NCBI GenBank assembly: GCA_976551045.1
Contig: CDPCPM010000367.1
Coordinates: 1,364,001-1,428,000, forward strand
Direction: 5' to 3'
DNA: 64,000 nt
DNA from: Glaucostegus cemiculus
Taxonomy: Eukaryota
Below, in pieces: positions 11,940-62,181 of this stretch. Made by a program: the position numbers and the translations under genes. Within the stretch, counting starts at the first letter, position 1. Each line of letters starts with the position of its first letter. The notes beneath the pieces were generated by a model that worked only from the letters and a program-made list of their open reading frames with translations, had not been told where the DNA came from and made no database searches.

Positions 11940-13450
11940 TGGGACGATGGCCCATAGCTGCATTCTAGAGGCTTCCATTGTGGGAGTGGAAGATTTGGGT
12001 CCAAGAATGGTCAACAGAGGGTTGTGTTCAGTGACCAGCATTAAGTGGTCTATCTAACAACAGCTGGTGAAATGTAGTAATCCCAAATGTAGTCGCCAGT
12101 TCAGCTGTCTCTATCGGATCATTGTTCTTTACACTCATTAAACACATGTAACACAGAGAAAAGGAGTCCTTCCTGTCCATTGTCCATTTTGTGGTTTCTT
12201 ACTGCTCCAATTCCATTATTAGATGCATTACACACAGGTTTCAGTGCATGGATGTAGTCATTGTGTGCCAGGAGGCACTTGCATTTAAGACTTGCTGAAG
12301 TCACATGCCATCTGGTCCTTCTCCCAATGCCATGGTTCATCCTTCAGCAGTTGGTGCATAGGTTGTAAGGCCTGTCTGAAACATACCATAATACTGGACC
12401 CTACAGAGGAAAGATTGAAGATTGGTGACATTTGTGTATGTTGTCAACAGCCTCAGCCTTCTCATCTTGTTGCAGACCACTTGTGTCTGCCCTCGAGCCC
12501 AAGTAATCCACTTCTTTCTGCACAAAGGCACCTCATAATTTACTCCTCATTAGGTTAACCTTTTGCTCATGAAGTTTCCTAAATAATTCCAAGCATTTGA
12601 AAGCTTCCTTTATGGCAGTAGAAAACAAAACACTATCTTGGTTGCATAGACAGCTTGAATTTCCTTTATGAAATTGATGGTGACCTGAAGTATTTTGAGT
12701 GATGACTTGATGCCATAAGGCAATTCAATATACGTCTAAAGCCCTGTAATGGGTGTTGTTTTTTAGATAATGTTGGCATTCTTTATCCATACTTAATTTG
12801 AACAAATTGGCAAAGATCTTGGACACTGTGAATTCAGCATAAAGATTAAGTGATGCAGACAAAGAGTATTGTGCAGATGAAGGTTATTTTGTAGTCCCTT
12901 GGTGCATCATAACAATGGATGTCATCCAACACACTATATCATTTGAGTTTATTCAAGACTTCTTCTACTTGAGCGTCCAGCATAAGTGATGCTGTTCTCG
13001 GCTTTCCGATGATTATTTTAAAGTTCAGTGTAATGTATTTATGAATCTGGTGTCCTTGAATTCTGATACACAAATCTTTGAATGGATCTATGCATTGATT
13101 CAGAAACTTATCGACACTTGTTTGCAAATTGCTCATATGAAATTCATTATTCCAGACCATCCTTAATTCTTTGAGTTGATCTTTCCCTAAAGTTCCTTTT
13201 CTGTAGTTATCAACTCTGGTATCTTTTTGACCATCAGATGAAATGTGATATATATTTTCTCAAGAGTTTTCATTGACCCACAAGAATGCCTTTAGATTCA
13301 GTGTGCTATTCACTGAAGGCACTTTGCTGAACATCTTGTTGTAGTATCTTTGGCCATGGTGGTTTTGGTGGTCGTGTCAACACACTGTCATTAACTTTCA
13401 CTGTAATTTTAAAATCACTACATTTATTATTTTTGTCATGGTGGCATACA
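11940..13450 (-). mobile_element. Decayed Ty3/Gypsy pol remnant (RT-RNase H)
   Basis: LLAHND..LKPVCNASNNGIGAV.NHKMDNGQE (RNase H, CDAS.YGIGAVL type), TNVTNLQSFL..VQYYGMF (RT thumb), VEEVLNKL and DYKIT (RT start). Many stops and frameshifts. Confidence 0.75.
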
Positions 13451-14049
13451 TGCTTTTAAAACTTCACCCTGCTCATTGGTTTCTGCATTGGATGATTTAT
13501 TTGTGGGTTTCTATCATCAGTGTTTGCCTTATGCTAAGGAACTGGCTTGGCAAACTGGGTCCATCCCCGCACACTGAGGCTATTCACTCTGTTTACAGTA
13601 AGGCATTTCGCTGCCCTAAACTGGCATATTTATACAGAGTGATCTCCATTACATTGGGAACAGCTTTTCATCACCTGTTTCATGCCAAACTTTCTCCTGC
13701 GACTCAGTCAGAGCTCCTGCCCTTGCTCCTGCTGTTGCTGTGTGACAATACACAACATCAACACTAACATTATGCACTGCCAAAACTCTTCTGACATTTT
13801 TAGAAACCAATTCCAGTGAATTTTCATGAACATGTAAATGTTAAATCTTGTGTATTAATAACATATTGAATTTGCTCATCTGTTCAACTACACATGACCT
13901 TATCCCACAGTGCATAGTGTAGGAGAGCCACAAAGTTACCCTGTTGTGACAAAGTTGTTAATGCCACTAAATAATCACTAATGCTGTTACCTGGTCTTTG
14001 TAACTTTCTGTGACCTTGGAATAGAGTCTGGAGTGAAGAAATTCCATTA

Positions 14050-17000
14050 CTTTTTATTAGTCAGACTTTTCAAACTTCACCCTAATATAGGCTCTCTTTA
14101 CCTGGGGGGAGAATTCTCCTGGCAGCTCCTCTGTCAAGCTCTCTAAGATTAGAAACATAGTTCTCATTTCAAACGGAGACAGTTATTAAGCAAATCAAGA
14201 CTATAAAATATGAAAATATCTAAAACCTCATTAATGAGTCATTGTCAGGGAATCATCTTTCTCTAGCTCCCACAACAAAACCAAAAACCTAATCTCTGCA
14301 TCATCAAAATGTATTCCAATAAGGGTTCTCAAATGACTGTACTCATTATATTTTTCCCTTCATTCAAATCCATGTGGGACATTGTTGTCTTCAAACCTAA
14401 TAGCAGCATCTAACACTGCAATCTCTCCATCTTTGCAGAAAATGTCAGGGATCCAAACCTTAACATATGTATCCTTGATTCTCGGTTCTTTAAAGGCAGA
14501 ACAGCCATATTTTCATCAATTTTATGAAGTGCCTGATTCTTCATTTTTAGCATGCATTTATCTGTTGGGAGATGTGATCTCACCACCAAAACAACTGCAC
14601 ATACTGTAGCTTCTACAAAATTTATTTGCATCTTGTCTCCCTACACCATGATAGGATATGTAATGGTTTTTAAGGGAATGAGAATAAATTAAGATTGTTT
14701 AATAGTAATTTAGTCCACTTGTCTGCTTTTCTAAAGTATTTGATTCCAATACCTTGGTGTGAGGTATGACCAGATTTCAAACTCCTGATCTTTCCAAAGT
14801 GCAGAATCATTATTTGACTCACTTAAGGATATGCTACTTTGAAATTAATCAACTTCTTTACACAGCTAAGACTTTTGATGTATCTGAAACATAGCAAATT
14901 CCTAGGTTTGCTGATTTTATCTTGCAAATTAATGCTTGTATAATCAAAAGAACTCATTATCAAAGGGCCTTTGGCATACCTAAAAGACATCATTTTCCTA
15001 ATTATAGCCGCAGGAATTTGTATTTCGAATTTAGGCAGACATAGACAGCTATCATGAATATTGGCATAACAGATTCCATTTAAAATACAGTCTGGGAGAT
15101 GCAGAACTATCTTAACAGCATTTCTCATCATGGAATCTGTTCTTACTAAAATGTTCCAAAAAGCTTTGATCAAAGTTAGATAATCATAGAACCTATGGAA
15201 TCATATAAATTCTTAGTATTTCTACATTTTGGGTGCATTCTACACTTATTCAGATTATTAGCCCATATACGTAGCATACCATTTGTCTCCAGTGAGATCA
15301 ATCCAGTGGGTCATGAGGAGCCCAAGAAAATTTGCAATCTCAGCAAGATTGATAAGGTCACATTTCTGTTTAACTTCCCAATTATCCAATTTATTATAAA
15401 TGTAAAATCTACACCTTGATATTCTAAAATACACGGTATTAGGTCATGACAATTTGAAAAGGATTGGGAATAAAGGTTCACCTTGCTTATTTTGAATAAG
15501 AATTGGATTATTTGATGGTCCTATACCATCAAAGACTTTATATGTTTTGCCTCATCACCAGAACTCACCAACAAGCGCCAAGACCTTGCTTGGCTGGTGG
15601 TGAGAGGAGATGTCCCTGTCAGATATTTCCTGTAAGGTCAGAATCTTACTCCCAACGCATGCTGCCCTCAGGACAGCTGCAGCTGTGATGAGGAGGAGAT
15701 TGTCACCCATTTCTTTGCAGACAGTGTATTTGCAAGTAGGGTTTGGAGAAGGATGCAAGGTGCCTTGTTGCGGTTGATCCTGAGGGCTCTCTGATCTATG
15801 GGCTGTTTCCAGGGACACACACACACGGGCATCAAGTCCTGCTGGAAGATCATCAACTCAGTGAAAGACACTCTTTGGTCTGCCCAAGTCTTGTTGGTCT
15901 TCCAATACAACAAGATGCCCATAAGGGAATGCTGCTGACTGGCACATTCCAGGCTGCAGGAGTATGTGTGCTGAGGGATGCACTGAAGCTCGGTGTAGTC
16001 AACGCAAAGAGATTGTGGGAAGGACTACAGTCTAAGGTCCTTCGGCCACTGGACATTGAGGGGCTAGGTCCGTTGTGGAAATCTCTCAAACAACCAAAGT
16101 TTGTATTACCCCCAAGAGGGTGCACATGAGTGGCAATGGTGTTATGTACATAAAAATGTGCTAACACTACTAATGTATAGAACCAATGACACTGTGAATG
16201 TATAGACAGAACAACACAATGAATGTAAAGAGCAATGCATTATTTTGTTTTTCTTTGATACTTCTATATTTTTTTATGAATAAAATTTATTTCTGAAATT
16301 AAAAAGTATGCTTTGGAACACATGTTACCAGTTAAAGCTATGAAGCACCTCTTGATTTGAAATTAATATATAATTAGGAAATTTTTATGGGCCACTTTAG
16401 GGGGAACTGAAGGCCTTAGCTAGATCTACAAAAACAATATACATCTATGATACTTGGCTCCATTGCTTCACTATATTCCTATTACAACCTGATAGTGCAA
16501 CAATCAAACCTTTCTGTCTAGAGTTAAACATAATAGCTAAGGACAAGTATTTAGTAATAATTTTGGTAAAGGCTCTTAGTAACAGTGATCCAATTGTGAT
16601 AGGTGTCCAGCTGTCAATGTTAAATAATTTCTCAAAATTATCAGCTTCAGAATAAGAACCATTTGATACCCTCAAATTGCATCAGGAATTATAATGATTA
16701 AGGTATAAGTTTGGCTACTTGTTGAACATCAAGTTTCCTCATATTTTCAACAGGAAGTTTCAAAGCCAGGAGATGTATCTGGGGCAATTCTAACCTCATC
16801 ACTCCCAATAGACTGGAGTAAATCCTCATTCTTGGTTCGCTTAAAAAAGGACTAAACTTCTCATATGGGATATATTACAATTATTTCAATATCCATTTTT
16901 ATTAAAAAGGTAATGTAATTCAAATTTAGAAATAGTCAAAGGATGTCAAGTCAAATAGTTCTTGTGTAATTTGTATGGCTAATTTCTCTTTATTCTTGTT

Positions 17001-17900
17001 ATGTATTTGAGTTTCCCAAAAATGTATTTTCTCTGAAAACCTTTTTCCTAACTCCCAAACTGATATTAGATTTCACAATATTCTTAAATGTGTTTGTTAG
17101 TTAATATGGCTTTACTAAAGCTATTTAGGATTAACAGTCTCTGCTGTTCAGAATTCTATTACATACTTCAAGACAGGTCACCAAGATTTCATTATTACCG
17201 ATAAACTGGAATTAACTTTATCATTGCTGAGATTTTGTTTAGGATGACTTAATTTATTTGACAATCCAGATATACTCTTGGAAGATCCTGAATGAACCAC
17301 CAAAGTTACTTGATAAATCTTTTTATCTTGCATTACTAATGAAATGTAACCTAGCACCAATATTATTATATTTTGGAGATTAGACTCAATTTAAATTAAC
17401 CCTACATCTATCTCTGATTCCACTGAATTCAGTAGCTCTATAATTATTTGATATTTGCTTGTTAATCTTGGTAGTAAGTTCTTAATTTACCCGAATGTTT
17501 ATGGTGCTGTATTTTTTAATACTAACAATAATTAATCCCAGCACTTGATCAGACTGATCACTTTATTTATTCAATTGAATCATAAAATTGTTGTTATAGG
17601 CAATCAGATGATTATGATGCTCTTGTTGACCTAATCCCATTATTATGCTAAGTATTTTATTACCTGGAGGAGGCTTCCGTCACTGCCCTACCCAGAGCCA
17701 GCACCTTTATCAGTTATGGTTGCTTGGATTCCCTATACCCTTAACAACATGGTAGTCTGTGGCATGGGATGTACCTGCTTTACTGGACTTGCAGCAAATA
17801 TCTTGCTTGCTACCATCAGGTCCTATATCTTAAATTGCTTTGAACAGGATTTGAGTATGATGTATCTAGTTTTGAAATTAGTGTGTTGAGGAGGAGGGAG
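14050..17900 (-). mobile_element. Decayed R2-like (RLE-clade) non-LTR retrotransposon: zinc fingers, Myb, RT, CCHC, restriction-like endonuclease; interrupted by a Tx1 fragment
   Basis: In order on the minus strand: CCKSSK..HATDYHVVKG (ZF), MGLGQQEHHNH (ZF), STINIRV..LTTKINKQIS (Myb), SWTPITIGSLLLRAFTKIIT..NSRQKGL..GC, IVFVDLAKAF, KQGEPLFPILF, AVKIVLHLP, WKDQEFEIW..QGIGIKYF, GRQDANKFCR, FKEPRIKD..WIPDIFCKDGEIAVLDAAIRFE (PD..D nuclease), FVVGAR. Confidence 0.85.
15520..16305 (+). mobile_element. Tx1-clade (L1-like) LINE 3' fragment nested in the R2-like element
   Basis: SPELTNKRQDLAWLVVRG.VPVR..CP..C..EEEIVTHFFAD..FASRVW (ORF2 C-terminal zinc-knuckle region), then 3' UTR with AATAAA near 16279 and an A-rich end. 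R2 RT motifs resume on both sides. Confidence 0.75.
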
Positions 17901-18337
17901 CAGAAAGTTACAAGGTAACATTGGTAGAAGGTGGAGTTGTAGATCCATGGCCAATTTCCCAAGAAGTAGATTCCCCAAAGAAGCAAAAGAGCAATCTGAC
18001 AATTATAGTCTTGACATTTAGATTGGCTAGTTGCTCAATCCTTTGGGGAGAGAGTTCCAAAATCTTTTGTATGAATATGTGTTTCATGATGACACTACAG
18101 AATTGCTTGGCTTGAAGATCATCTCTCCTGATTTTGGATTTTTCCACCATCAAGATCTTCTACTTGAACACTATTTTACTGCATTGGCTCCATATGCCTT
18201 GATTCACTTGATATCCAGAAATCAATTGATCTTTGGAATGAACTCAATGCCTGATCCTCCATAGCCCTCCAGGATAAAGAATTCCTTGATTTACCATCCC
18301 TACGTGAAAAGAAAATCTCTTCTTTTTTCTAAGTGGC

Positions 18338-18603
18338 TGTTGGATTCAACTGTTTTAAGTAGATTTTTAACATGTATAGTGTTTAATACACCTCAAGTGG
18401 CTGCACAAGGAATGGCTGCTTCCTAGCTTATTGGTTCGTCCATCAGTTGGTTGGTTTTGCCACAGGTATCTAATAGGTTTACTGATTGGACTATTGTTAA
18501 CTAAGGAGTATCTCTTATCTCAGGTATAAAGGGTATCCTTTTTTTGTTAATCACTCTCTTGCTTATCACCCTCTCTTGCTCTCTCCCCCCCCCCCCCCCC
18601 CCA
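18338..18603 (+). mobile_element. 5' part (U3/TATA) of an LTR, second copy of the family at 36262-41836
   Basis: Starts TGTTGGATTCAACTGTTTTAAG, contains GATTGG and TATAAA, then a pyrimidine tract and poly-C. Aligns in reverse complement with 36961-37227 plus 41811-41836. Confidence 0.7.
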
Positions 18604-18785: not shown

Positions 18786-19151
18786 GAGTGGACCAGGGAG
18801 TCACAAAGGGAGTGGACCCTGCAGAATGTGGAAAAGGATAGGGAGGAGAAGTTGTGGCCAGTGGTGGGATCTCACTGCAGCTGGCAGAAATGACAAAAAA
18901 TGCAGAGGCCTGTAGGGTAAAAGTTGAGGACGAGGGGAACTCTATCTTTGCTTCTCCATTCTCGTGTCCTTTTGCTATTAAAGGCCTTTGTGTACCTTCC
19001 TAAATATTGCTAGCAAAGTTCAGATGAGCTCATTTTCTTTGGGACAGAGGAGGCTGAGGGGAGACTTATGTGAATAGGAAGGATTGATCATGCTTAACAG
19101 AGAGCTCTCAACCCAAAGGACATAGATTTAAAGTATCTGGTAGGAAGATTG

Positions 19152-19452
19152 ATAAAATAAGATTAGTGACATGTAATCGAAACACACAGTGAGATACATC
19201 TTTTGCATAGAATGTTCTGGGAACAGCCCATAAGCGTCACCATGCTTCGGGCACCAATATAGCACGCCCACAACTTCCTAACCTGTACATCTTTGGAATA
19301 TGGGAGGAAACCGGAGCATCCAGAAGAAACCCACGCAGACACGGGGAGAATGTACAAACTCCTTATGGACAGTGGCTGGAATTGAACCCGGGTCGCTGGC
19401 GTTGTAAAGCGTTATGCTAACCGCTGCACTACCATGCCTGCCCCTACACTAC
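19152..19452 (-). mobile_element. tRNA-derived V-SINE inserted in an old + strand CR1 3' fragment (about 19020-19690)
   Basis: Head with A/B-box-like gcggttagc..gggttcaattcc, V-core ttctccccgtgtctgcgtgggttt..tgctccggtttcctccca, tail catgtcactaatc. Confidence 0.85.
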
Positions 19453-21804
19453 CGAAAAAGATTTTAACTGAGATGGTGGTAGAGGTCTGGAACTGACTGC
19501 CTGAAAGAGTGGTAGAGATCGTACAGAAACTGTATTTGCAAATGTACCTGAAGAACCATTACCCGCAGGGCTACAGACCTAGTTCTGAAGGTGGTATTAG
19601 ATTTGATATTTCTTTTTTGACTGTAACAAATATGATGGGCCAAATGATGACCTCCTGTGTCATTAATTTTCTAAAGATTCAATGATTCTAAGTCTCTGAT
19701 AATCTAGTTCATCTTTGGTGTATGATTATGACCTTGCTATGTACACTGGCCATACATGGTGTTATAAAAGGGACCACACCTAAAGTGCATCCAGTTCCTC
19801 AGCTCAGCATGATGGAGCTCAGCCACTTGGCCCCCATGAGTGACCTCCAGCACATTGTATGCATGAGTGTGTCAACCTGGAAGTGAGTACATGCTGAAGA
19901 GTCGAGTGGAAGATAGAAGGCAGTTTTCGAGGGAGCAGAGTCTGCCTCATTGCTTTCTGAACATACCATTGAAACATCTCTCAAGAAATTCATAATCTTT
20001 GGGAGATTAAGCCTTCTGATCTCTGGTTAGTTAAATGACTTTATTAATGATTTATGTCAAAGAGTTATTAATACTGAGGCTATTTTCTTTCATTAAAGTT
20101 TGCATGACATATTACTTCCAAGAACAAATTCAGTAACACATCCCTTAAAGTGTTTCTTTCCCATTTTTTCTGATGTTTATTAAGATTATGGAATATGCAG
20201 TTTATAACATACATTAAATGGGAATCTGTTTCCTCGATTGATACTGGACACCTGATATTAACATTCCTTCATCAGTGTTCCATGTAACTATTAAAGTCAC
20301 AGCAACATTTTTTCCACGAAACATCACATCAAATGTTTTGGATCATAAGTGATTCAGGCTAACCATGGTGTTAATGCGAAGGGTTTATCAAGGTTAATGC
20401 TGCATTCTTCACATATGTTGTTAGATGCTCTGGTACTCAAGCGTCTGGAAAACAGATCGTTAATAATAATTGAGAGATTCTGCCAAGCATTCAAAAAATT
20501 TAAGTTTTTTTTTAACCAGACACAGCTAACATTTAATCAGGATCACAATAAAATGGTGAAACAATATTCATGTCTGCATGATTTATGGTGAAAGCATTAA
20601 AGCAGGTGATTTGAAAATAGCTGCAATGCCAGAGAAAATGAAAATTTAGTAACTAAAACTGAGGCTCAGATGCTTTTAAATTCAGACTACAGAAGCAATA
20701 GTCTGAACCAGTGGGTGAATCTCGATTAAGTATAATTAAAATCAGATAGACACATTGTTCCTTTGTTTTTGTTAAAGTGGTGCGATCTAAGGTTTTTTAA
20801 AAAGGGCAGCATCACACAATTGCACATTGTATCCAGTAAGGATATCCAGCTATTATCTCCTATGACAGCACTGAGGACTTTATCTAGTGTGAATAAGAGT
20901 ATGCAATTTGCATTCTTGAGTCACGTTAAAAATCACAGGCTTGAAACACAGCATTTAAAATCTGATGAACACAATACTTCATCTTAAAAAAAATCTAATT
21001 TGTTGTAACAGTTAGTTTAAAGGAGAACAAAGTTACATTTTTAAATTAAAAAATATGAAACACTGGAAATACTCAGCAGATCAGGCAATATCTGTGGAGG
21101 GAGCAACAGAGTTAGGAGGTTGGATGACATTGGCCAGCTGCCATAGTGCAGGCTGAAAGTGTGGAAGGTGGCGCTCTGACCTCCCATTCACCTGTGACCA
21201 ATCACCTACCCCACAACCCCACCCTCACCCCACCATTCTCCTCCTGAGTCCAGGAGTCTGGACAGCTGGATGCACTTCACCCCTGGCTGCTCAGCTACAT
21301 GTCAGCCATAGTTGCCCCTATTCATTTGAAGAGGCCACTGAGGTTCACTAAAAAGTTAAGAGCCGCTCGGCTGCAAATGGCTTTCTTCTATTTTAATTTT
21401 AATTAATTTACGTAAGTTGATTGTAGTTTTACGTAAATTTATTTTTTTTAACGTTTTAGTTATTTAAATGTTTTACCGTTATTTAAATGACTCTGGTCAT
21501 TGCGACTTACAAATTGATAAAGGCTTTTGAGTCTAAAGGAAGTGTAACTATCCACAGCAGAGTTGTCAAAGTCGAGTTTATTGTCATATGCACAAGTGCA
21601 GGGGCAATGAAAAACTTATAGCAGAATCACAGGCACATAGCATATATTACCAACATTGTTTGATTGGTACCCCATCCACCAAATTAATCCTGCATTCCTT
21701 CCACAACTGGTCCACAGTGGCTGCACCTTCTACAAGATGCATTGTAGTTACTTGTCTCGTCTACTCTGACAGCAAACCCCCAAACCACAAGAAGGACAAG
21801 GGCG

Positions 21805-24768: not shown

Positions 24769-25002
<234 letters not shown>

Positions 25003-37322: not shown

Positions 37323-40300
37323 CTAACTCTTTCCACCCTCATATCCTACTATTCCACATTCTTCCATGTGCTTATCTAACAATCTCTTAAACCTGTCCAA
37401 CGTATCTACCTCCACTACCACCCCAGGCAGTGCATTCCATGCACCAACCACTCTCTGGGTGAAAAACTTCCCTCTGACGTCTCCCCTATACTTTTCACCT
37501 ATTATCTTAAAGGCATGCCCTCTCGTCTTGAGCATCTGCGCTCTGGGAAAGAGGCGCTGACTATTAACTCTATCTATTCCTCTCAATATCTTAAACACCT
37601 CTATCAAGTCCCCTCTCATCCTCCTCCTCTCTAATGAGTAGAGCCCTAACACCTTAAGCCTCTCTTTATATTCCATACCCTCCAATCCAGGCATCATCCT
37701 GGTAAAACGCCTCTGCACCCTCTCCAACGCCTCCACATCCTTCCTATAATGCGGCGACCAAAACTGAACACAATATTCCAAGTGCGGCCTAACTAGAGTT
37801 TTGTAAAGCAGCATCATCACCTCTCTGCTCTTGAACTCAATCCCTTTATTTATAAAAGCCAACATCCCATAAGCCTTCTTAACAGCCCTATCCACCTGCG
37901 AGGCAACTTTGAGCGAACTGTGGATATGAACCCCCAGATCCCTCTGCTCCTCCACACTGCCAAGAACCTTACCATTTACCTTATACTCTGTCCTGGAGTT
38001 TGTCCTCCCAAAGTGCACCACCTCACACTTCTCCGGATTAAACTCCATCTGCCACCTATCAGCCCATTTCTGCATCCTATCAATATCCCCCTGTAAGCTC
38101 CTACAGTCCTCCACACTATCTACCACACCACCGATCTTGGTGTCATCTGCAAACTTACCAACCCATCCCTCCACTCCTTCATCCAAATCATCTATGAATA
38201 TAACAAAGAGTAGAGGCCCCAGAACCGATCCCTGCGGGACTCCACTAGTCACAGCCCTCCAATCCGAGGGCACTCCCTCCACCATAACCCTCTGCCTTCT
38301 ACAGGAAAGCCAATTTCTTATCCACACAGCCAACCTCCCCTGGATACCTCGACCTCTGACCTTCTGAAGAAGCCTGCCATGAGGAACCTTATCGAACGCC
38401 TTACTAAAATCCATATACACTACATCCACCGCCCTGCCCTCATCAAGCTTCCTCGTCACCTCCTCAAAGAACTCTATCAGGCTCGTGAGGCAAGATCTTC
38501 CCTTCACAAAGCCATGCTGACTGTCCCTAATCAGTCCATGACTCTCCAAGTGCTCATAGATCCTGTCCCTCAAAATCCTTTCCAACAGCTTACCTACCAC
38601 AGACGTGAGGCTCACCGGTCTGTAATTTCCCGGACTATCTCTACTGCCCTTCTTAAACAAGGGAACAATATCCGCTACCCGCCAATCCTCCGGCACCATC
38701 CCCGTGGACAACGAGGACTCAAAGATCCTCACCAGCGGATCAACAATCTCCTCCCTCGCCTCCCGAAGCAGCCTGGGGAATATTCCATCGGGCCCCGGAG
38801 ACTTATCAGTCTTGATACTACTTAACAATTTCATCACCTCCTCCCTCTCTATAGCTACATACTCAAGAATATTACCCTTGTCAGCACTCACCGTCACATC
38901 ATCAAGGCCCCTCTCCTTGGTGAATACAGAGGAGAAGTATTCATTAAGTACCTCCCCTACCTCTGCCGCCTCCAGGCACATCCTCCCACCTTTGTCCTTA
39001 ATAGGCCCTACCTTTACCCTAGTCATCCTTCTGCCCTTCACATAAGAGAAAAAAGCCTTGGGATTTTCCTTAACCCTACGAGCCAACATCTTTTCATGTC
39101 CCCTTCTAGCTCTCCTCAGCTCTTTCTTAAGTTCCCTTCTCACTATACTATACTCCTCACGGGCCACATCAGAGCCTTGCCGCTTACACCTTACGTAAGC
39201 CTCCTTCTTCCTCCTAACCAGTCTTTCTACCTCTCTTGTCACCCACGGTTCCTTCACTATTCCATTCTTCCTCCGTCTTGCCGGAACATATCTGTCCCCA
39301 ACATCCTGTAAAACATCCCTGAACAACGTCCACATCTCTACAGTACACATCCCCTCAAAAAGGACTTCCCAATTTACACTCCCAAGCTCTTTCCTTATAG
39401 CCTCATAGTCTGCCCTACCCCAATTGAATATCTTCCTACGCTCCCTGCACTTATGCCTGTCCATGACAATTCTAAAGCTTATCGAGGAATGATCACTGTC
39501 TCCCAGAGGCTCACCCACTAGTAGATCTCTCACCTGTCCCGGTTCATTTCCTAAGACCAGATCCAACACAGCATTCCCTCTAGTCGGTTTGTCAACATAC
39601 TGCTCCAGAAATCCATCCTGGACACACTTAACAAACTCATTCCCATCCAAACCTCTGGCACTGAGCATGTCCCAGTCTATATTCGGGAAGTTGAAATCAC
39701 CCATTATTACAACCCTATTATCTTTGCTTCTGTCCAAGCACTGCCTGCCAATCTGCTCCTCTATATCCCTACTGCTACCTGGGGGCCTATAGTATACTCC
39801 CAGCAGCGTAACCACACTTTTCCTATTCCTCACTTCCACCCACACCGACTCGAAAGAGGATCCTTCCGCAAACTCAGCCCTTTCCGCAGCCGTAACATCA
39901 TCTCTGACCAATATCGCCACCCCTCCTCCTCTTCTCCCCCCCTCCCTATCCTTTTTAAAACACTGAAAACCAGGAATGTTCAATACCCACTCCTGCCCTG
40001 ACGACAGCCACGTCTCAGTTATGGCTACAATATCATAATCCCCCATACCTATCCAAGCCCTCAATTCATCACCCTTATTCCTAACACTTCTCGCATTAAA
40101 GTAAACACACTTTAACCCATCCAATTTAACCCTTTTATAGCCCTCATCCTGCCTCTCTCTCCCCAAAGCCTCATCACCTGCTCGATGCAACTCATCTCCA
40201 TCTTCAGTACACGTCGACGTGATCCTGCATACCTCCTCCTTTAAGCCATGTTGGTTTCCCTTGCCTTGCCTGTTTAGTTTATCCACCTTTTTACTATTAC

Positions 40301-40424
40301 TGCCTGTACACTGCTTCTCCTTCCTCAAAGCAACTCCATTTGTCAGATCTGCCTTTTCTGTAATCCCTACATCCTCTGACCAGCCCTCCTGGTTCCCAAC
40401 CCCCATCTCAACTAGTTTAAACAC
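37323..40424 (-). CDS. CR1 ORF2: APE endonuclease and reverse transcriptase (open from GTG at 40424, first ATG at 40406)
   Basis: YFNARS, ITETW, YYRPP, MGDFNFP, DSDH (APE); YRPVSLTS, DFSKAFD, GVPQGSVLGP, KFADD (RT); 1033 codons without a stop. Confidence 0.97.
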   Translation of the reverse strand: MFKLVEMGVGNQEGWSEDVGITEKADLTNGVALRKEKQCTGSNSKKVDKLNRQGKGNQHGLKEEVCRITSTCTEDGDELHRAGDEALGRERQDEGYKRVKLDGLKCVYFNARSVRNKGDELRAWIGMGDYDIVAITETWLSSGQEWVLNIPGFQCFKKDREGGRRGGGVAILVRDDVTAAERAEFAEGSSFESVWVEVRNRKSVVTLLGVYYRPPGSSRDIEEQIGRQCLDRSKDNRVVIMGDFNFPNIDWDMLSARGLDGNEFVKCVQDGFLEQYVDKPTRGNAVLDLVLGNEPGQVRDLLVGEPLGDSDHSSISFRIVMDRHKCRERRKIFNWGRADYEAIRKELGSVNWEVLFEGMCTVEMWTLFRDVLQDVGDRYVPARRRKNGIVKEPWVTREVERLVRRKKEAYVRCKRQGSDVAREEYSIVRRELKKELRRARRGHEKMLARRVKENPKAFFSYVKGRRMTRVKVGPIKDKGGRMCLEAAEVGEVLNEYFSSVFTKERGLDDVTVSADKGNILEYVAIEREEVMKLLSSIKTDKSPGPDGIFPRLLREAREEIVDPLVRIFESSLSTGMVPEDWRVADIVPLFKKGSRDSPGNYRPVSLTSVVGKLLERILRDRIYEHLESHGLIRDSQHGFVKGRSCLTSLIEFFEEVTRKLDEGRAVDVVYMDFSKAFDKVPHGRLLQKVRGRGIQGRLAVWIRNWLSCRRQRVMVEGVPSDWRAVTSGVPQGSVLGPLLFVIFIDDLDEGVEGWVGKFADDTKIGGVVDSVEDCRSLQGDIDRMQKWADRWQMEFNPEKCEVVHFGRTNSRTEYKVNGKVLGSVEEQRDLGVHIHSSLKVASQVDRAVKKAYGMLAFINKGIEFKSREVMMLLYKTLVRPHLEYCVQFWSPHYRKDVEALERVQRRFTRMMPGLEGMEYKERLKVLGLYSLERRRMRGDLIEVFKILRGIDRVNSQRLFPRAQMLKTRGHAFKIIGEKYRGDVRGKFFTQRVVGAWNALPGVVVEVDTLDRFKRLLDKHMEECGIVGYEGGKS

Positions 40425-41386
40425 TCATCAACCACCCAAGCATAACGTGTTGCCAGGATATTTGCCCCCCACCGGTTGGGGTGTAACCCGTCCTCTCTGT
40501 ACAGGTTCCACCTTCCCCAGAATAGATCCCAATTATCCAAAAATCTAAATCCCTCTGCCCTGCACCACTCTCTCAGCCACGTATTTAACTGCCTCCTCTC
40601 CCTGTTCCTAACTTCCCTATCACGTGGCACCGGGAGTAATCCAGAGATTACTACCCTTGAGGTCCTGGTCTTCAGCTTTCTGCCTAGCTCCCTGAACTCC
40701 CCTTGCAGGACCTCATCCCTCTTTCTACCTATGTCGTTGGTACCAACATGAACCACAACTACTGGCTGCTCTCCCTCCCGATTGAGAATCCGGGGAACCC
40801 GATCAGTAATATCCTGGACCCTGGCACCAGGGAGGCAACATACCATCCGGTATTCATGATCACTTCCACAGAATCTCCTATCTGTTTCCCTGACTATCGA
40901 GTCCCCTATCACCACTACATTACTCTTCACCTTCTTCCCCATCTGAGCAGTAGTACTGGTCATGGTGCCAGTGACCTGGGTACTTGTGCTTGGTCCCTGC
41001 AGGCTATCCCCCTCCACAGTTTCCAAAGTTGAAAACCTGTTACTGAGGGGAACAGCCCCCAGGGTGCCCTGCTCTACCCGCCTGTCTGCCTTCTTCTTCC
41101 TCTTCTCTCCCCTGACAGTCACCATTCTGTCTAATACCTGAGCTACAGAAGAGTCTGCTCTAAGGGGGGTGACCGTCTCCTGATGAACCGTATCAACATA
41201 GCTCTCTCCCTCCCGTATGCTGCGCAGTGTCTGCAGCTGCGACTCCAGCTCAACAACTCTGAGCCGAAGTTCCTCCAGCCACACACACTTGCTGCAGATG
41301 TAGTCAGTGTGGACCGCAGTACTGTCCACGACCTCCCACATCAAGCAGCTGCAGCATACAAGCCTGTCCTCCCCCTGACTGTCCAT
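40412..41386 (-). CDS. CR1 ORF1: zinc finger/coiled coil plus SGNH/GDSL esterase domain
   Basis: CCSC..CSKC, heptad LEELRLRVVELESQLQTL, VIGDSIV, VHVGTND and DGLHPN (Ser/Asp/His triad motifs intact); 324 aa. Confidence 0.95.
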   Translation of the reverse strand: MDSQGEDRLVCCSCLMWEVVDSTAVHTDYICSKCVWLEELRLRVVELESQLQTLRSIREGESYVDTVHQETVTPLRADSSVAQVLDRMVTVRGEKRKKKADRRVEQGTLGAVPLSNRFSTLETVEGDSLQGPSTSTQVTGTMTSTTAQMGKKVKSNVVVIGDSIVRETDRRFCGSDHEYRMVCCLPGARVQDITDRVPRILNREGEQPVVVVHVGTNDIGRKRDEVLQGEFRELGRKLKTRTSRVVISGLLPVPRDREVRNRERRQLNTWLREWCRAEGFRFLDNWDLFWGRWNLYREDGLHPNRWGANILATRYAWVVDECLN

Positions 41387-41810
41387 CTTTGACCTGGCTA
41401 AATCAGAACCACAAACTGTAATAGGCGACTAAGAAACCTTACCTCCACCTACTTACCAGATACTTACTTACTCTGCTTGCCCCTTCTCGCCGAAGCCCCT
41501 TGAGCCTAAGCCCAGGTCACTCTGCTCCCCCTCACTCAGCTGCCCGCTCCGACGCTGCCCGCTCTTTCGGCCGGCTGCCTTTTTAAGCTGCCCGCGCCGC
41601 GCCTGCGCAGACCAGCCCCCACTCAAGCACTTACAAACTTTTACAACCCTACTCAATTACCTGAAATAAACACACTAACCCTAGTTAATTCTACCCCTAA
41701 TGGAATCTAACCCTTACTCTTACGATCCAATAAAAAAAAAGATAGAAAGAAAAACACTTAACTGCCCTGAAGACCTCCGAAGCTTTCCGAAGTCCCCCGA
41801 GTCGCAAAAG
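41387..41810 (-). promoter_or_regulatory. CR1 5' UTR / putative internal promoter
   Basis: CpG-rich core at 41480-41620 with TGCGCAGGCGC (NRF1-like) and repeated gcgggcagc. Function is inferred. Confidence 0.55.

Positions 41811-62016: not shown

Positions 62017-62181
<165 letters not shown>

Follow-up and report, generated by a model that had tools for sequence, protein, structure and literature searches.

A decayed lineage-A R2 retrotransposon outside ribosomal DNA in Glaucostegus cemiculus resembles an old stray of a 28S-targeting shark-and-ray family

The 64,000-nt stretch of the Glaucostegus cemiculus genome examined here (assembly GCA_976551045.1, contig CDPCPM010000367.1, positions 1,364,001 to 1,428,000 of the forward strand; hereafter, the window) contains a heavily decayed R2 retrotransposon of lineage A (R2-A), which spans positions 17,800-14,140 on the minus strand. 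Sequence comparisons support its assignment to the cartilaginous-fish type of this lineage. This fossil is an R2-A by descent, not an R2 embedded in ribosomal DNA (rDNA): it does not occupy the canonical site in the 28S rRNA gene, which is part of the working definition of R2 in Hassan (2026; PMC13188248). The copy has the look of an old stray from a shark-and-ray family whose members still target 28S genes, rather than of a new family without target specificity, and we lean towards its origin as an ancient, dead off-target copy of an elasmobranch R2-A.

Fragments of the reverse transcriptase (RT), the thumb, and the restriction-like endonuclease (RLE) were compared with the PDB using phmmer. 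Chains from cryo-electron microscopy structures of R2 ranked first (E 1.6e-11, 8.9e-5, and 4.3e-4, respectively). All matches of the three fragments at E<0.5 were lineage-A R2 chains, and the only significant ones were the structure-solved vertebrate elements TaGu (9nl3/9dou) and PlaMe (9nl2). The R2Bm chains of the same library (8gh6 and 8ibw, which we take to be silkworm R2) were not matched at E<=1. When the RT piece was used as query in a full HMMER search, 83 matches were obtained, and eight of the best ten were named shark proteins. A word-index search with an 80-residue RT piece yielded 34 candidates, none of which passed. Frameshift-aware scoring against proteins of at least 150 amino acids ranked P0095, P0094 (bamboo shark), and P0096 (turtle) at the top. 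P0094 matches R2-1_CPu over the visible N-terminus of the latter, and 28S sequence is listed on both sides of R2-1_CPu (Table S2 in Hassan, 2026; PMC13188248). The fossil shares its domain order and clade with R2-1_CPu and other elasmobranch R2-A (R2-1_STig, R2-1_SAc, R2-1_HSa, and R2-1_SCa; PMC13188248), as well as 35-48% identity in RT, thumb, and RLE, an AT-biased amino-acid composition like that of R2-1_CPu, and a compatible length of the 3' untranslated region (UTR). Unlike these elements, it is dead, fragmented, located outside 28S, without a detectable third zinc finger (ZnF3), and devoid of the RT catalytic motif.

Phylogenetic trees were built from 53 rows, namely 51 proteins chosen by score and spread of named taxa, the fossil, and a CR1 element of the window as outgroup, or from 35 of these rows; five of originally 58 rows were discarded as short or badly cropped. 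In all five trees, the fossil fell within a clade whose 14 members are R2 from sharks, coelacanth, and turtles. Support for this clade was 0.989-0.999 in FastTree (three guide proteins) and 98.2 and 86.6 in the Shimodaira-Hasegawa-like approximate likelihood ratio test. The adjoining clade, a sister sublineage, contains the turtle R2 PlaMe (P0020); PlaMe and TaGu are intact and 28S-specific, unlike the fossil. With P0094 and P0020 serving as anchors, the fossil nested among proteins identified as R2, sharing 30-38% identity with them despite its decay, and its terminal branch measured ~1.5 substitutions per site. The PDB matches, the shark proteins among the best matches, and all five trees thus bear out the original prediction, made from the sequence of the window, with regard to lineage and host group.

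When the minus strand (18,200-13,900) was translated in three frames, all motifs named in that prediction appeared in R2 order, but in multiple frames and with many stops (Table 1). The prediction that the full domain order survives needs qualification: the ZnF-Myb-RT-zinc knuckle-RLE order of lineage-A R2 is present as a broken remnant, in which ZnF3 and the FADD region of the RT were not detected. The segment 15,404-14,158 is collinear with shark R2 up to the last P0094 residues (35-37% identity over ~400 columns, with 8-10 frameshifts), and ~80 RT residues including the catalytic FADD motif are gone between the KQG motif and position 15,404. The N-terminal stretch 17,796-17,437 scored above all 136 control tiles with the shark queries P0094 and P0005 and was the top match of a ZnF-Myb profile in the window (E 0.011); with query P0096, one of 69 control tiles equalled its score. 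With two non-shark queries, it did not surpass all control tiles; these queries comprised the first 140-150 residues of each protein, and one lacked ZnF1 and Myb, whereas the other stopped inside Myb. Myb is represented in the fossil by its C-terminal helix, a weak match. ZnF3, which co-folds with ZnF2 in the three-finger N-terminus of lineage-A R2, gave no signal over background with four queries and may have been lost by truncation or decay. The pre-RT remnant, recognized with P0094, was at background with three other queries (equalled by 42, 48, and 4 of 162 tiles). No 5' region or 5' continuation of R2 exceeded background up to position 21,500, and Rfam gave no match for a 5' ribozyme or 5' UTR; the upstream region is occupied by other repeats. 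Annotation of such fossils needs protein-level searches, since Pfam recognized no family in any of four fragments whose stops were replaced by X. With its stops, frameshifts, lost catalytic motif, and an RT interrupted by a long interspersed nuclear element (LINE), the element is presumably functionless now.

The insertion took place before at least four organisms diverged from one another. Contigs of four runs, each from a different organism, were compared at an identity floor of 80%; contig depth in this comparison is not copy number. Three other organisms (X5, X6, and X12) carry the 3' half of the R2 at the orthologous place. A contig of X6 running from the flank into the element (12,402-15,576) displays 185 differences in 3,180 nt. 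Divergence in X5 is 5.6% for flank-containing and 6.1% for element contigs, and in X12 it is 7.6% for the flank and 7.6% and 7.7% for the element, with two short 5' pieces at 8.3% and 12.9%. Contigs cross from flank to element at flank-equal divergence, which shows a fixed, orthologous insertion that evolves as its flank does. Depth over 14,048-15,489 was at flank level (7.6-9.3 in X5, 11.2-14.6 in X6, and 6.7-7.4 in X12), and that over the LINE insert ranged from thousands to tens of thousands. No pile-up of paralogs with at least 80% identity was seen in any of the four runs, in which contigs indicate presence rather than absence. The 5' half (16,314-17,960) was mostly without coverage in X5 and X6. 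Slightly raised depth at 13,842-14,047 in the same two organisms could stem from an unrelated repeat of low copy number or from further 3' ends. No second R2 piece was found in the window.

Extended 28S sequence is absent from both flanks. Rfam identified no rRNA in the window, and the six matches obtained for the 3' flank at E<=10 were all under the gathering score and included no rRNA. The 28S queries, which were taken from locus L001 (see below), ranked at background: 128 of 316 tiles for 200 nt of downstream 28S against the 3' flank and 64 of 316 for 200 nt of upstream 28S against the 5' flank. A query covering -30..+100 ranked 10 of 316. The earlier statement that neither side carries 28S is therefore correct for extended sequence, but has to be amended for a site at 13,619-13,601 that agrees with the R2 target in 16/19 positions. 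Searched through the whole window, the 18-mer of the original prediction gave a single match with three mismatches, which lies on the element strand at 13,619-13,602, and 0.02 target-like 19-mer matches are expected per window. A 290-nt 28S profile found its best match in the whole window at this site, yet with an E value of 6.1. Within 1 kb after the open reading frame (ORF), nick-spanning queries were equalled by 2-6 of 500 shuffles and downstream-only queries by 7-22 of 500. The nick position lies ~525 nt past the ORF end. The 3' UTR comprises 478, 500, and 565 nt in three lineage-A elements of sharks and rays (Table S2; PMC13188248) and, as counted by eye, ~215 and ~300 nt in two others. 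The location of a target-like match at the expected end of a shark 3' UTR is suggestive only; nevertheless, it is fairly probable that the match around 13,613 is the true 3' junction.

The RNA of R2 is co-transcribed with 28S rRNA, and the R2 protein nicks its target and reverse-transcribes at the nick. An off-target origin would imply that this protein once primed at a target-like chromosomal site, or with a short 28S tail brought along, and that a nearly full-length copy was inserted antisense in an intron with its 3' junction near 13,613. Lacking its own promoter once outside rDNA, the copy would then have decayed. The closest relatives of the fossil with known flanks are inserted in 28S (Table S2 in Hassan, 2026; PMC13188248). 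That table lists 13 chondrichthyan R2 rows from a study that sought 28S-flanked copies, and eight of the nine lineage-A-type rows among them have 28S on both sides. Off-rDNA copies of R2 were reported for five Drosophila species (Stage and Eickbush, 2009; PMC2718515), and strays of R1 use sites that share 4-9 bp with the target and can bring along as much as 14 nt of 28S from its downstream side (PMC2718515). Off-target insertion by avian R2 proteins was given as 0.1-1%, the nick being followed directly downstream by a primer-like sequence (PMC11371274). Like the fossil, the extra-rDNA R2 and non-28S R1 of Drosophila are strays of rDNA-specific elements; these R2 copies are, however, recent (1-2% diverged), whereas the fossil is old, fixed, and shared across species.

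Several observations weigh against this origin. The junction match is short, and the window contains four occurrences of its downstream 13-mer taken by itself, versus 2.1 expected. Six bases upstream of the nick add to the score and are not explained by simple off-target priming; they might represent a 28S-like 3' UTR end, as occurs in some fish R2 (PMC5035012), or chance. The 3' UTR at 13,614-14,139 is putative, its R2 origin being deduced from spacing alone. The position of the fossil within its clade varies with the guide protein. The 80% identity floor is blind to paralogs that decayed independently. Finally, many relatives in two sharks occur on long scaffolds, which would also fit a leakier or dispersed family. 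The evidence leans towards a lone off-target copy, incompletely so in view of possible old paralogs below 80% identity and of these relatives.

Alternatively, the fossil may be an rDNA orphon, in which an R2-bearing piece of 28S was moved by recombination or circle integration and its flanks were later deleted, overwritten, or decayed. The target-like match at 13,601-13,619 and the later repeats covering the 5' side are compatible with this scenario, and Table S2 (PMC13188248) offers parallels in three Gopherus rows, where decayed R2 has diverged or short 28S flanks, and in R2-1_SCa, where merely ~110 nt of upstream 28S were recognized by eye. However, a long 28S flank of the same age should be as alignable as the R2 ORF still is, and the 200-nt 28S queries remained at background in both flanks. 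We therefore consider an orphon unlikely.

The original prediction proposed that the fossil may represent a dispersed R2 family of cartilaginous fishes that lost or changed its specificity; in the form considered here, this would be an old elasmobranch R2-A subfamily that spread genome-wide. The lack of extended 28S at the fossil agrees with this possibility, as does the placement of lineage members among the named matches: 15 of 19 gene models from Chiloscyllium punctatum and five of 10 from Scyliorhinus torazame are on scaffolds of >150 kb, each of a different length. R2-1_CCar is listed without 28S cells in Table S2 (PMC13188248), and non-specific R2 families are known in flatworms (PMC5035012). 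In two of five trees, the fossil branched outside all sampled shark members and may therefore belong to a separate extinct subfamily. On the other hand, the scattered shark pieces fall, by eye, in subfamilies that also include 28S-flanked copies; neither paralogs of at least 80% identity nor a second R2 piece in the window were found; and a candidate target remnant is present at the 3' junction. The two non-specific R2 families reported by Kojima (2016; PMC5035012), R2NS-1_SMed and R2NS-1_CSi, are both from flatworms and resemble the fossil in being located outside rDNA. They belong to the D and C clades and have young copies (>98% identity to consensus) at varied sites, and no such family was seen here: many similar copies at unrelated sites were not found at >=80% identity in any of the four runs, where older paralogs are invisible. 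A non-specific subfamily is thus rather doubtful.

AT-richness, proposed as a special trait of such a family, was rejected. The GC content was 33% in the element and 37% in the 3' flank, and the observed/expected ratio of CpG was 0.09-0.15 in the element, 0.19-0.22 in the 3' flank, and 0.14-0.18 in other intron stretches. GARP/FYMINK values were 0.16/0.38 in the fossil, 0.18/0.38 in the 28S-inserted R2-1_CPu, and 0.22/0.30 in P0095. These values do not distinguish decay from an AT-biased ancestor. Since the amino-acid bias of the fossil is that of R2-1_CPu, it is not tied to lost specificity. Taken together with the 28S-inserted relatives, the candidate target remnant, and the lack of close paralogs, this argues against a distinct AT-rich family with lost target specificity as the source of this copy.

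A weaker form of the proposed dispersal survives in the long-scaffold relatives. Several of these shark gene models have altered catalytic motifs, and one white shark model is located on a 137-Mb chromosome. P0223, from a 50-Mb chromosome of the zebra shark, was left out of the stray count because its start matches R2-1_STig itself. By eye, P0091-type models match R2-1_STig and P0089-type models match R2-1_SCa in the visible cells of Table S2 (PMC13188248). No 28S-derived peptide was found in the shark gene models, P0086 being the sole match. Off-target priming and orphons are not separable from scaffold placement. Shark R2-A may be unusually leaky, and it is possible, though we hold it only tentatively, that shark-ray R2-A have relaxed specificity, with the 28S niche kept and long-standing insertion at target-like chromosomal sites in addition. 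If so, they would constitute a natural genome-wide record of off-target insertion, with the fossil among its oldest entries. Lineage-A R2 proteins are currently being engineered to insert genes in humans. A single dead stray, as a fixed lineage marker, matters little, but the long-scaffold relatives are a lead worth following, as they bear on the off-target sites tolerated by lineage-A R2 and on the binary label 'site-specific or not'; according to a 2026 review (PMC13580325), this label is probably oversimplified and genome copies may mislead. The matches listed in our literature search, whose coverage excludes most subscription literature and Repbase, included no report of R2 outside rDNA in sharks or rays.

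Two further explanations have little in their favor. That the host gene has co-opted the fossil, or the 3' portion of it, as a conserved element within its intron would fit the retention in four organisms but is very improbable, since divergence of the element (6.1% and 7.6-7.7%) equals that of flank-containing contigs from the same runs (5.6-5.8% and 7.6%). Membership in another RLE clade (NeSL, R4, Hero, or Utopia) is hardly credible: the trees included no named sequence of these clades, but the fossil nests in them among proteins identified as R2 (P0094 and P0020), and it retains a Myb remnant, the criterion that separates R2 from Utopia (Hassan, 2026; PMC13188248).

Table 1. Features of the R2 fossil and its surroundings in the window.
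Feature	Position	Strand	Basis or remark
Remnants of ZnF2 (CCHC type), ZnF1 (C2H2), and C-terminal Myb helix	17,437-17,796	-	Single frame with stops; metal ligands partly gone
Short pre-RT remnant (P0094 residues 457-481)	16,977-17,045	-	Equalled by 0/162 tiles with P0094
RT, N-terminal part (W.PITIG, RQKG, VFVDLAKAF)	16,321-16,751	-	46-48% identity to shark R2 (frameshift-aware alignment)
RT, KQG.PL.P.LF motif	15,447-15,536	-	tblastn E 0.36 alone; collinear
RT, C-terminal part, and thumb (LHLP...IQIP..I.RK)	14,868-15,404	-	E 1e-22 to P0095
W..QG.G, eroded zinc knuckle (GRQD..CR), RLE (EP..PD..D), GAR; ORF end ~14,140	14,140-14,790	-	Alignment and motifs
Putative 3' UTR, ~525 nt	13,614-14,139	-	Spacing
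Candidate 3' junction, 16/19 match to 28S R2 nick site (11/13 on downstream side)	13,601-13,619	-	Sequence match
Later insertion, 5'-truncated 3' end of high-copy LINE	~15,550-16,306	+	Contig pile-up; loose ends before 15,548
Left target-site duplication of LINE insert, 9 bp	15,541-15,549	+	Partner 16,307-16,315, 8/9 identical, by eye
High-copy repeats at the 5' boundary (by eye, a CR1-type 3' end)	18,168-18,560		Contig pile-up
Internal coding exon of host gene, C2H2 finger	24,823-24,966	+	PF12171, E 2.3e-6; nearest cluster GPATCH8-named, 0.94
Next coding exon of host gene	62,050-62,180	+	End presumed; family motif

The LINE insert interrupts the RT in an orientation opposite to that of the R2. 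We presume that it is of the L1/Tx1 type; its zf-RVT match was weak (E 0.14). The insert had been recognized in the original prediction, and its limits, given there as 15520-16305, are corrected in Table 1 together with its 9-bp duplication.

The R2 appears to lie antisense within an intron of a gene from the ZNF804/GPATCH8 family; the host was placed in the ZNF804A/B-GPATCH8 family on the basis of its motifs. The two coding exons agree with the predicted location in an intron of a protein-coding gene. The intron placement itself is deduced from the first exon, which has an acceptor and no start codon; no upstream host exon was found within the window.

Some related sequences deserve mention. 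P0096 is a 1,291-aa R2-A ORF with intact-looking RT and RLE motifs, which is named in NCBI as an isoform of painted-turtle PDE3B and located on a 156-Mb chromosome. It clusters with P0083 from Gopherus and the coelacanth P0097 beside the shark clade and away from PlaMe. Turtles may thus possess a second R2-A sublineage, possibly off rDNA. In P0010, an RT piece of R2 is fused into a receptor gene model on a 1.9-Mb scaffold of the bamboo shark; judging from its Pfam domains, we take this receptor to be vomeronasal type 2-like. In Table S2 (PMC13188248), R2-1_SCa has a 663-aa ORF, and its ~110 nt of upstream 28S are preceded by non-rDNA sequence; this catshark element and R2-1_CCar from the white shark may be strays listed as R2. 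Downstream of R2-1_GEv, the same table gives ~200 nt of 28S followed by DNA whose hand translation resembles residues ~52-95 of P0096, and two other Gopherus rows end at the same 28S point. Either this locus is a rearranged orphon, or the usual site is followed ~200 nt downstream by a second R2.

No 28S motif was detected in viral contigs, and two metagenome scans for shark R2 DNA gave 108 and 47 pattern matches, none of which was confirmed. Sixteen stretches with a eukaryotic 28S R2 target site (L001-L016) were found in prokaryotic genome records and probably represent contamination. Elsewhere in the window, a near-intact CR1-type element with open frames of 338 and 1,033 aa is located at 37,323-41,428 on the minus strand, and a tRNA-derived short interspersed nuclear element was recognized by eye at ~19,150-19,440 on the same strand.

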